Below are positions 539 through 2,827 of a stretch of 2,827 nt of DNA, in pieces. Both the position numbers and the translations under genes were made by a program. The notes under the pieces were generated by a model. It was not told the origin of the DNA and did not search any database. It was given only the letters and a program-made list of their open reading frames with translations. This DNA is from Enterobacteria phage CUS-3. Location: sequence record FN395000.1. The stretch is one strand, 5' to 3'. Every line of letters starts with the position of its first letter. The stretch's first letter is position 1.

Positions 539-1762
539 TCTGAGCCATGTGTAAAATATTATGATGGCATTCTGTATCTGACGACCAGGGGGACATTAAG
601 TACTCAACCCGGTAGTTCATTGCACAGAAGCTCTGATTTAGGTACATCATGGAATTCTCTTCGCTTCCCAAATAATGTTCATCACTCAAACCTTCCTTTT
701 GCCAAAGTTGGCGATGAGCTGATTATTTTTGGCAGTGAGCGCGCATTTGGTGAGTGGGAAGGAGGAGAACCTGATAACCGTTATGCAGGAAACTATCCAA
801 GAACATTTATGACCAGAGTTAACGTCAATGAGTGGAGTCTGGATAATGTAGAGTGGGTTAATGTTACTGATCAGATTTATCAGGGCGGAATAGTTAACTC
901 TGCGGTTGGTGTTGGTTCAGTTTGTATCAAAGACAACTGGCTGTACTACATTTTCGGTGGGGAAGACTTTCTAAACCCATGGAGCATAGGGGATAACAAC
1001 AGAAAATATCCTTATGTTCACGATGGTCACNNNNNNNNNNNNNNNNNNNNNNNNNNNNNNNNNNNNNNNNNNNNNNNNNNNNNNNNNNNNNNNNNNNNNN
1101 NNNNNNNNNNNNNNNNNNNNNNNNNNNNNNNNNNNNNNNNNNNNNNNNNNNNNNNNNNNNNNNNNNNNNNNNNNNNNNNNNNNNNNNNNNNNNNNNNNNN
1201 NNNNNNNNNNNNNNNNNNNNNNNNNNNNNNNNNNNNNNNNNNNNNNNNNNNNNNNNNNNNNNNNNNNNNNNNNNNNNNNNNNNNNNNNNNNNNNNNNNNN
1301 NNNNNNNNNNNNNNNNNNNNNAGCGGCGGTGAAACAACGTCTTCAGCAGATGGTGCAATGATAACGTTGCATGGTTCCGGAAGCAGTACTCCACGTCGCG
1401 CGGTATATAACGCACTCGAACATCTTTTTGAGAACGGAGATGTTAAACCTTATCTTGATAATGTAAATGCTCTTGGTGGTCCGGGAAACAGGTTCTCGAC
1501 AGTTTATCTTGGCTCCAATCCTGTGGTTACCAGTGACGGAACATTAAAGACAGAGCCGGTCTCTCCTGACGAAGCATTGCTGGATGCCTGGGGTGACGTC
1601 AGGTATATCGCTTATAAATGGCTGAACGCTGTCGCTATAAAGGGGGAAGAAGGGGCGAGGATACATCATGGTGTAATCGCGCAGCAACTTCGTGATGTTC
1701 TTATTTCTCACGGACTCATGGAAGAAGAAAGCACAACATGCCGCTATGCGTTTCTTTGCTAT
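539..1762 (+). CDS. Endosialidase (endo-N-acetylneuraminidase) tailspike, C-terminal portion: distal beta-propeller segment with Asp-box, masked stalk region, and C-terminal intramolecular chaperone domain; partial at both ends
   Basis: Frame 2 is open with no stop across both visible blocks (539-1030 and 1322-1762). The internal mask is 291 nt (97 codons), so the frame is preserved. Translation includes 'YYDGILYLTTRG', 'HRSSDLGTSWNS' (Asp-box) and 'WLYYIFGGEDF' upstream, and 'SDGTLKTEPVSPDEALLDAWGDVRYIAYKW...HHGVIAQQLRDVL' downstream. A frame-2 TGA at 419-421 prevents the ORF from extending upstream of 422. The 3' end is in the third N run. Confidence 0.75.
629..652 (+). other. Asp-box (BNR) sialidase motif S-S-D-L-G-T-S-W
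   Basis: Codons 629-652 in frame 2 encode SSDLGTSW, matching the S-x-D-x-G-x-[TS]-W Asp-box consensus found in sialidase beta-propellers. Confidence 0.6.
1031..1321. other. Run of 291 N inside the endosialidase frame (97 codons; frame preserved)
   Basis: Directly visible. Its length is a multiple of three and the same frame is open on both sides. Confidence 1.
1532..1762 (+). other. Peptidase S74-type C-terminal intramolecular chaperone domain (CIMCD) of the tailspike, with putative autoproteolytic Ser-Asp site at 1532-1537; domain continues into the mask
   Basis: 'S-D-G-T-L-K' followed by 'DVRYIAYKW' and 'HHGVIAQQL' matches the pattern of the endosialidase/tail-fibre self-cleaving chaperone domain (S|D-x-x-L-K ... 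Y-x-Y-K ... G-x-IAQ) as I recall it. Cleavage is expected between Ser (1532-1534) and Asp (1535-1537). Confidence 0.7.
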
Positions 1763-2179
1763 NNNNNNNNNNNNNNNNNNNNNNNNNNNNNNNNNNNNNN
1801 NNNNNNNNNNNNNNNNNNNNNNNNNNNNNNNNNNNNNNNNNNNNNNNNNNNNNNNNNNNNNNNNNNNNNNNNNNNNNNNNNNNNNNNNNNNNNNNNNNNN
1901 NNNNNNNNNNNNNNNNNNNNNNNNNNNNNNNNNNNNNNNNNNNNNNNNNNNNNNNNNNNNNNNNNNNNNNNNNNNNNNNNNNNNNNNNNNNNNNNNNNNN
2001 NNNNNNNNNNNNNNNNNNNNNNNNNNNNNNNNNNNNNNNNNNNNNNNNNNNNNNNNNNNNNNNNNNNNNNNNNNNNNNNNNNNNNNNNNNNNNNNNNNNN
2101 NNNNNNNNNNNNNNNNNNNNNNNNNNNNNNNNNNNNNNNNNNNNNNNNNNNNNNNNNNNNNNNNNNNNNNNNNNNNNNN
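1763..2179. other. Run of 417 N; expected to hide the tailspike 3' end and stop, the intergenic/promoter region, and the 5' end of neuO
   Basis: Directly visible. Its content is inferred only from the flanking genes. Confidence 1.
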
Positions 2180-2827
2180 ATGTCGTTTTCCGTTGATGAT
2201 AATGGATCAGGTAATATTTTTGTATGTGGAGATCTTGTAAATAGCAAAGAGAATAAAGTTCAGTTCAATGGAAACAATAACAAACTTATTATAGAAGATG
2301 ATGTTGAGTGTCGATGGCTTACCGTAATATTTAGGGGTGATAATAATTACGTAAGAATACATAAAAACAGTAAGATTAAAGGTGATATTGTCGCAACAAA
2401 AGGTTCAAAAGTTATTATCGGTAGAAGAACGACAATAGGTGCAGGTTTTGAAGTCGTCACTGATAAGTGCAATGTTACAATTGGCCATGACTGCATGATA
2501 GCAAGAGATGTTATTTTGCGTGCATCAGATGGGCATCCTATATTTGATATTCATAGCAAAAAAAGGATTAATTGGGCAAAAGATATCATTATATCTAGTT
2601 ACGTATGGGTAGGGAGAAATGTCTCTATAATGAAAGGGGTATCTGTTGGAAGCGGATCTGTCATTGGGTATGGGAGTATTGTAACTAAAGATGTGCCATC
2701 TATGTGTGCAGCAGCCGGTAATCCAGCAAAAATAATAAAAAGAAATATAATATGGGCAAGAACGGATAAAGCGGAGCTAATTAGTGATGACAAGAGATGC
2801 TCCAGCTATCATGCGAAGCTCACGCAA
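2180..2827 (+). CDS. neuO: Polysialic acid O-acetyltransferase NeuO (hexapeptide-repeat, left-handed beta-helix acyltransferase); no stop within the window, and the 5' boundary abuts masked sequence
   Basis: Frame-2 ORF from ATG 2180 with 216 codons and no stop to the window end. Hexapeptide-repeat signatures: 'IGAGFEVVTDKCNVTIGHDCMIARDVILRASDGHPIF' and 'VWVGRNVSIMKGVSVGSGSVIGYGSIVTKDVPSMCAAAGNPAKIIK'. GC is clearly lower than upstream (about 30-43% in hand-counted 60-nt lines). Lies immediately downstream of an endosialidase gene, as I recall for neuO in the K1 prophage CUS-3. Counting from this Met puts His at 119 and Trp at 143, the residue numbers I recall being reported as catalytic in NeuO. 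Confidence 0.85.
   Translation, partial: MSFSVDDNGSGNIFVCGDLVNSKENKVQFNGNNNKLIIEDDVECRWLTVIFRGDNNYVRIHKNSKIKGDIVATKGSKVIIGRRTTIGAGFEVVTDKCNVTIGHDCMIARDVILRASDGHPIFDIHSKKRINWAKDIIISSYVWVGRNVSIMKGVSVGSGSVIGYGSIVTKDVPSMCAAAGNPAKIIKRNIIWARTDKAELISDDKRCSSYHAKLTQ

Follow-up and report, generated by a model that had tools for sequence, protein, structure and literature searches.

Does the third run of Ns in the CUS-3 sequence record FN395000.1 conceal the phase-variation tract of a neuO gene, or is the tract simply not in the record? The stretch of DNA analysed here, to which we refer as the window, comprises 2827 nt and is interrupted by three N-runs at 439-538 (100 nt), 1031-1321 (291 nt) and 1763-2179 (417 nt, unbroken). 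Directly after the last of these, an open frame on the plus strand starts with an ATG at 2180 and runs for 216 codons to the end of the window at 2827. The initial annotation took this frame for neuO, and it placed the variable heptanucleotide tract, the true start codon and the promoter of the gene together under the Ns at 1763-2179. We find that the gene was correctly named and that the promoter region does fall in the N-run, but that neither the start codon nor the repeat tract is hidden there.

Positions 2180-2827 encode NeuO, the polysialic acid O-acetyltransferase of the Escherichia coli K1 prophage CUS-3. When the translated frame was compared with the PDB by phmmer, 215 residues (2-216) aligned to 3jqy, 'Polysialic acid O-acetyltransferase', with a single I/V difference and E = 1.6e-142, and the product also matched the Hexapep family of Pfam (PF00132, E = 4.2e-11, 42.5 bits vs a cut-off of 27). 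His119 and Trp143, which are catalytically important in NeuO when residues are numbered without the heptads (PMC3046976), are both present in the translation of 2180-2827. From window position 2183 on, the neuO DNA is 100% identical to that of many E. coli K1 genomes. The gene order siaK1/tailspike, neuO, int/intS is found in CP000711, IMT5155, PA45B and FDAARGOS_1304, and the window itself has siaK1 fragments directly upstream of neuO. The near-identical crystal structure together with the genome matches settles the identity of the gene. The second-best PDB relative was the meningococcal enzyme OatWY (2wlc, 3e-31), followed by galactoside acetyltransferase (8e-19), maltose acetyltransferase (2e-17; the two families span 1e-15 to 1e-19) and serine acetyltransferase (3e-6). 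Another hexapeptide acyltransferase of the maltose, galactoside or serine type can be dismissed, as these gave 3e-6 to 8e-19 against 1.6e-142 for NeuO.

The window thus shares with the characterized NeuO of CUS-3 (PDB 3jqy; Schulz et al., 2011, PMC3046976) its sequence, its membership of the Hexapep/LbetaH family (left-handed beta-helix), the His119/Trp143 pair and the tailspike and IntS neighbours. As deposited, it differs from known NeuO in that the record lacks both the variable-number tandem repeat (VNTR, the poly-psi tract) and a stop codon, and in that codon 2 is TCG (Ser); the TAA stop, absent from the window, follows the last codon in PA45B. We write 'neuO+0' for a frame with zero repeat copies, as it stands in this record. 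The I/V difference lies at window position 2216, in codon 13 of the neuO+0 frame, where the window has Ile (aatATTttt) and both 3jqy and RS218 have Val (aatGTTttt).

The place of the tract becomes clear when the window is set beside complete genomes. IMT5155, PA45B and FDAARGOS_1304 all read ...GGATACTAAT ATG TC (AAGACTC)n GTTTTCC, where the window reads ATGTC directly joined to GTTTTCC. The IMT5155 chromosome has 18 copies at this site, ATG TC (AAGACTC)18 GTTTTCC, and CUS-3 of strain RS218 has 19, ...GGATACTAAT ATG TT (AAGACTC)19 GTTTTCC. The RefSeq coding sequences of in-frame (ON) alleles begin at this same ATG, at position 1372 of the IMT5155 locus (L003) and at position 2059 of the FDAARGOS_1304 locus (L006). 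As the genomes place the VNTR after the same ATG and TC, the ATG at 2180..2182 (plus strand) is the native neuO start and not an artefact of the N-boundary; the initial annotation expected a start codon hidden under the Ns, and in four reference sequences it is the visible one. The VNTR for its part belongs between 2184 and 2185, after the start codon rather than in 1763-2179, and it is missing from the record rather than masked: not one AAGACTC unit occurs on either strand anywhere in the window. The two bases that separate the ATG from the VNTR are themselves polymorphic, being TC (Ser2) at window positions 2183-2184 and in IMT5155, PA45B and FDAARGOS_1304, and TT (Leu2) in RS218 (L002 2868-2869). 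With TC, a repeat register of TCAAGAC reaches up to the start codon.

We re-derived the frame rule from the letters themselves. Counted from the A of the ATG, the TCG codon lies at an offset of 7n+3, so that only an n divisible by 3 puts the gene in frame. Translation with n = 18 gives a 258-aa protein, MS(RLKTQDS)6FSVDD..., while n = 19 leads to a stop after 49 aa and n = 20 to a stop after 66 aa. The general picture of a 5' heptanucleotide switch that is in frame only at multiples of three, and whose repeats encode an N-terminal heptad extension, was therefore sound. Equally, the ON/OFF state is unreadable from the window, the tract being absent from the record. Slipped-strand mispairing is the process that changes n, ON alleles produce NeuO with n/3 RLKTQDS heptads, more heptads give a higher catalytic efficiency, and long chains of K1 capsular polysialic acid are the substrate that becomes O-acetylated (PMC3046976). 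Every three units thus add one RLKTQDS heptad, and it is the ON cells that O-acetylate their K1 polysialic acid capsule.

If the tract is not under the Ns, what do they stand for? To delimit the corresponding stretch in four references, we used as anchors the bases that immediately precede the N-run and those that follow the repeat site. From the siaK1 fragment to the ATG, CUS-3 RS218, IMT5155, PA45B and FDAARGOS_1304 all have exactly 417 nt, and the four copies differ from each other at 2 positions at most; in the IMT5155 locus the Ns correspond to L003 955-1371. In the reference loci (L002, L003, L005 and L006), the equivalent of 1763..2026 (plus strand, 264 nt) continues the siaK1 frame, DDYPAVYDD...LIEGKH, for 87 codons up to a TAA stop at 2024-2026, so this part of the placeholder represents the siaK1 3' end. 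The remainder, 2027..2179 (plus strand), is the siaK1-neuO intergenic region of 153 nt. Tandem Repeats Finder, run on the reference loci, reported nothing within the 417 nt, and the only array it found was the heptamer after the ATG. The expectation that the N-run masks the repeat tract therefore fails, as the equivalent 417 nt is repeat-free in four references and the length of the run is fixed across sister records (described below). Counting 7-nt repeats upstream of 2180, which we did on the reference equivalents, likewise gave none, and the gene is nevertheless neuO.

Projecting coordinates from PA45B onto the window (window = L005 + 121), a consensus scan of the PA45B intergenic region picked out two plus-strand sigma-70-like sites at approximately 2092-2120 and 2135-2163, both of them consensus matches only. 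In total 5 promoter-like matches were found vs 1.3 expected; all are putative sites defined by consensus. A putative AGGA Shine-Dalgarno sequence, also projected from PA45B and likewise a consensus match, lies at approximately 2169-2172, 7 nt upstream of the ATG. neuO has been reported to be regulated by DsdC, which bound the promoter region only weakly (PMC9659370).

The structure of the record itself explains the remaining Ns. When a phage collection was searched by megablast with 2180-2827, the matches comprised 18 records under the name 'Enterobacteria phage CUS-3', all of them 2827 nt in length and with neuO occupying 2180-2827, together with the full genome of CUS-3 (CP000711) and with phage phiv205-1. 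We read four of the sister records in full, namely FN394992, FN394994, FN394997 and FN394999, which represent genotypes GT_8, GT_10, GT_13 and GT_15. All four carry the title 'partial proviral terminase gene, siaK1 gene and neuO gene, genotype GT_n' and are annotated with the same coordinates (terminase 1-438; siaK1 539-1030 and 1322-1762; neuO 2180->2827), and in all four the N-runs of 100, 291 and 417 nt and the junction 'N...N ATGTCGTTTTCC' are identical to those in the window. The series of CUS-3 genotyping records, FN394218 and FN394986-FN395002 (GT_1 to GT_18), agrees with the window in length, N-runs, feature coordinates and zero-repeat junction. What sets the records apart is substitutions: the window differs by 3 from FN394997 (GT_13) and from FN394999 (GT_15), by 9 from FN394992 and by 11 from FN394994, and no exact match to it was present among the sister records searched. 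Since genotype numbers run parallel to accession numbers, the window is probably the GT_16 record. The CUS-3 typing scheme and its records presumably go back to Mordhorst et al., reportedly published in 2009 (Environ Microbiol 11:3154).

The window is furthermore not contiguous DNA, as a terminase fragment, a 100-N spacer and a siaK1 fragment follow one another in it. The first sequenced fragment, at 1-438, belongs to the terminase small subunit; it gave no Pfam match at E <= 0.01. It corresponds to CP000711 22268-22705, while the siaK1 fragment ends at 4013, so that 18,254 nt separate the two in CUS-3 and the 100 Ns between them are an arbitrary spacer. The 291-N run, on the other hand, is the true spacing of the two siaK1 fragments (IMT5155 locus, L003 223-513). 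siaK1 encodes the endosialidase tailspike, and its second sequenced fragment at 1322..1762 (plus strand; identified by Pfam and by the annotation of the sister records) reaches from the last part of the catalytic/tailspike domain into the first part of the C-terminal chaperone domain (End_tail_spike, 7e-33; Peptidase_S74, 8e-12). It shows 0 mismatches to PA45B and FDAARGOS_1304.

One of the sister records allows a direct comparison with the chromosome of its own strain. FN394994 derives from strain IMT5155 and matches the IMT5155 chromosome with 0 mismatches in both siaK1 fragments and in neuO. The typing record nevertheless reads ATGTCGTTTTCC, with 0 repeats, where the complete genome has 18 AAGACTC units at the same site, and the omission is therefore editorial. 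It is for this IMT5155 record only that the removal is directly visible, and all 18 records have the same length despite a widely varying natural copy number, which argues that the tract was left out systematically. We are accordingly almost certain that the window is a curated, concatenated CUS-3 genotyping record from which the VNTR has been edited out and in which the Ns are placeholders. On this reading, four sequenced fragments (the terminase small subunit, two siaK1 pieces and neuO) were set on a common frame of 2827 nt and the unsequenced parts filled with Ns, of which the 417 represent the 3' end of siaK1 together with the intergenic/promoter region of 153 nt. The hypervariable heptanucleotide tract was omitted so that strains could be aligned for genotyping, a motive that we infer. 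A survey from 2026 likewise excluded the VNTR from its BLAST query for alignment reasons (PMC13001214).

The natural copy number was sampled in two ways. As the N-runs keep the natural distances, subtracting 1506 nt from the span that window 1322-2827 covers in a genome should leave 7n. Among the matches listed, the difference was a multiple of 7 in 59 of 60 complete E. coli genomes, with n = 3-53, and n was divisible by 3 in 20 of the 59. For MS7163 the span test gave n = 21, the same as the published value (PMC13001214). For the second sample, a synthetic 134-nt junction without repeats (62 nt upstream, ATGTC and downstream sequence) served as the query against 5,426 complete E. coli genomes, and we took an evenly spread 60 of the 158 matching records. 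One of the listed rows covered half of the query only; the 59 full-length matches listed were all split into two pieces lying 35-420 nt apart, so that a contiguous junction (n = 0) was found in none of these 59 from the 158 records. The tract was a multiple of 7 in 57 of the 59 genomes, with n = 5-60 and 19 of the 57 divisible by 3. Both samples together amount to about 115 genomes with n = 3-60, of which approximately one third are ON and none has zero copies. A published survey found 3-53 repeats and 65.6% of alleles OFF (PMC13001214), and the natural range has elsewhere been given as 2-93 (PMC3046976).

We also considered reading the copy number of the window's strain from its closest genomes, and rejected this approach. 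At siaK1 1322-1762 and neuO 2185-2827 the window is 100% identical to PA45B as well as to FDAARGOS_1304, yet the former has n = 20 (OFF) and the latter n = 18 (ON). With identical flanks around 18 and 20 repeats, the ON/OFF state of the window's strain is not inferable from its relatives.

Some further observations came from these genomes. NZ_CP116409.1 deviates from a multiple of 7 by 1 nt. Three isolates with names of the form 729_* have 19, approximately 32 and 14 copies, which suggests slippage inside one lineage. In 729_270514_x_12 the tract (L007 1162-1388) has a garbled centre, AAGATCTCGAGACTCAAGTTGCAAGACTC, and measures 225 nt (32x7+1); the irregularity is probably a long-read consensus error. 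RefSeq is inconsistent in its treatment of OFF-phase neuO: ON alleles are given as the full 258-aa protein (L003, L006), the OFF allele of PA45B (n = 20) as a 111-aa 'acyltransferase' with an internal start (L005 2514-2849), and that of 729_270514_x_12 as a partial pseudogene (L007 1221-1400). Finally, 196 complete genomes were matched by a query of siaK1 plus neuO vs 161 by neuO alone, and about 35 genomes seem to have a prophage with the endosialidase tailspike in which neuO is missing or diverged.

Against this background the other ways of reading the record can be weighed. That the tract, the true start and the promoter all lie under 1763-2179, with the ATG at 2180 being internal or accidental, would fit an ATG that abuts the Ns in a window without any AAGACTC unit. 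We regard this as very improbable, however, because the run has precisely the length of the repeat-free stretch that precedes the ATG in the four references, because the genomic repeats lie downstream of that same ATG, where the RefSeq ON alleles also start, and because a run fixed at 417 nt cannot contain a tract whose length ranges between 21 and 420 nt among strains. Still less credible is the idea that the Ns are an assembly gap, or mark the joining of scaffolds, after the repeats collapsed in a short-read assembly; the initial annotation had noted that such tracts commonly cause assembly gaps. Tandem repeats can break or corrupt assemblies, and the garbled 225-nt tract of L007 is a case in point, but here the same N-runs of 100, 291 and 417 nt recur in independent records of different strains, two of them agree to the base with the distances in the genome, the run of 100 bridges genes separated by 18,254 nt in CUS-3, and the records are annotated partial-gene typing entries and not assemblies. 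The Ns are fixed-length placeholders between typing fragments, identical in the sister records that we read.

Alternatively, the record could be taken at its word, and the strain would then carry a natural zero-repeat allele (neuO+0) that is always in frame and locked in the ON phase, with a low catalytic efficiency of its product. The window does contain an intact, in-frame neuO+0 ORF when read literally, and NeuO without heptads is active in vitro (PMC3046976). Were this so, CUS-3 would acetylate the K1 capsule constitutively and at low efficiency, and the contingency switch would be lost. We find such an allele highly unlikely. The IMT5155 record has the identical zero-repeat junction and yet its strain has 18 repeats; all 18 records are of the same length; n = 0 did not occur among the approximately 115 complete genomes sampled; all 25 genome matches listed start at base 4 of the neuO query and not at base 1; and zero falls outside the published ranges of 2-93 (PMC3046976) and 3-53 (PMC13001214). 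We therefore favor the former explanation, namely that the window is an edited genotyping record.

Simple-sequence contingency loci, in which phase variation by slipped-strand events takes place inside coding regions, are well known from bacteria such as Neisseria and Haemophilus. neuO resembles them in that the number of intragenic repeats sets the reading frame, and approximately one third of the sampled genomes are ON, as expected for random copy numbers. It is unlike other contingency loci in that three 7-nt units make up one RLKTQDS heptad, so that the length of an in-frame tract also tunes the efficiency of the enzyme, a property that has been called unique to NeuO (PMC3046976). OatWY, the sialate O-acetyltransferase of Neisseria meningitidis serogroups W-135 and Y, has the LbetaH fold and the catalytic logic in common with NeuO (PMC3046976), but is distant in sequence, is not phage-borne, and has neither a heptanucleotide VNTR nor N-terminal heptads (established knowledge; PMC3046976).

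In conclusion, the gene, the switch and the mechanism described here are all already known, and nothing about them is novel; NeuO is reportedly also the subject of earlier studies by Deszo et al. in 2005 and Bergfeld et al. in 2007. The sole value of the analysis is a caution for the reading of databases. The Ns of this series of CUS-3 records are alignment placeholders and the phase-variation tract has been edited out, and a scan of such an entry could misread it as a masked repeat, as an assembly gap, or as a constitutive zero-repeat neuO allele.
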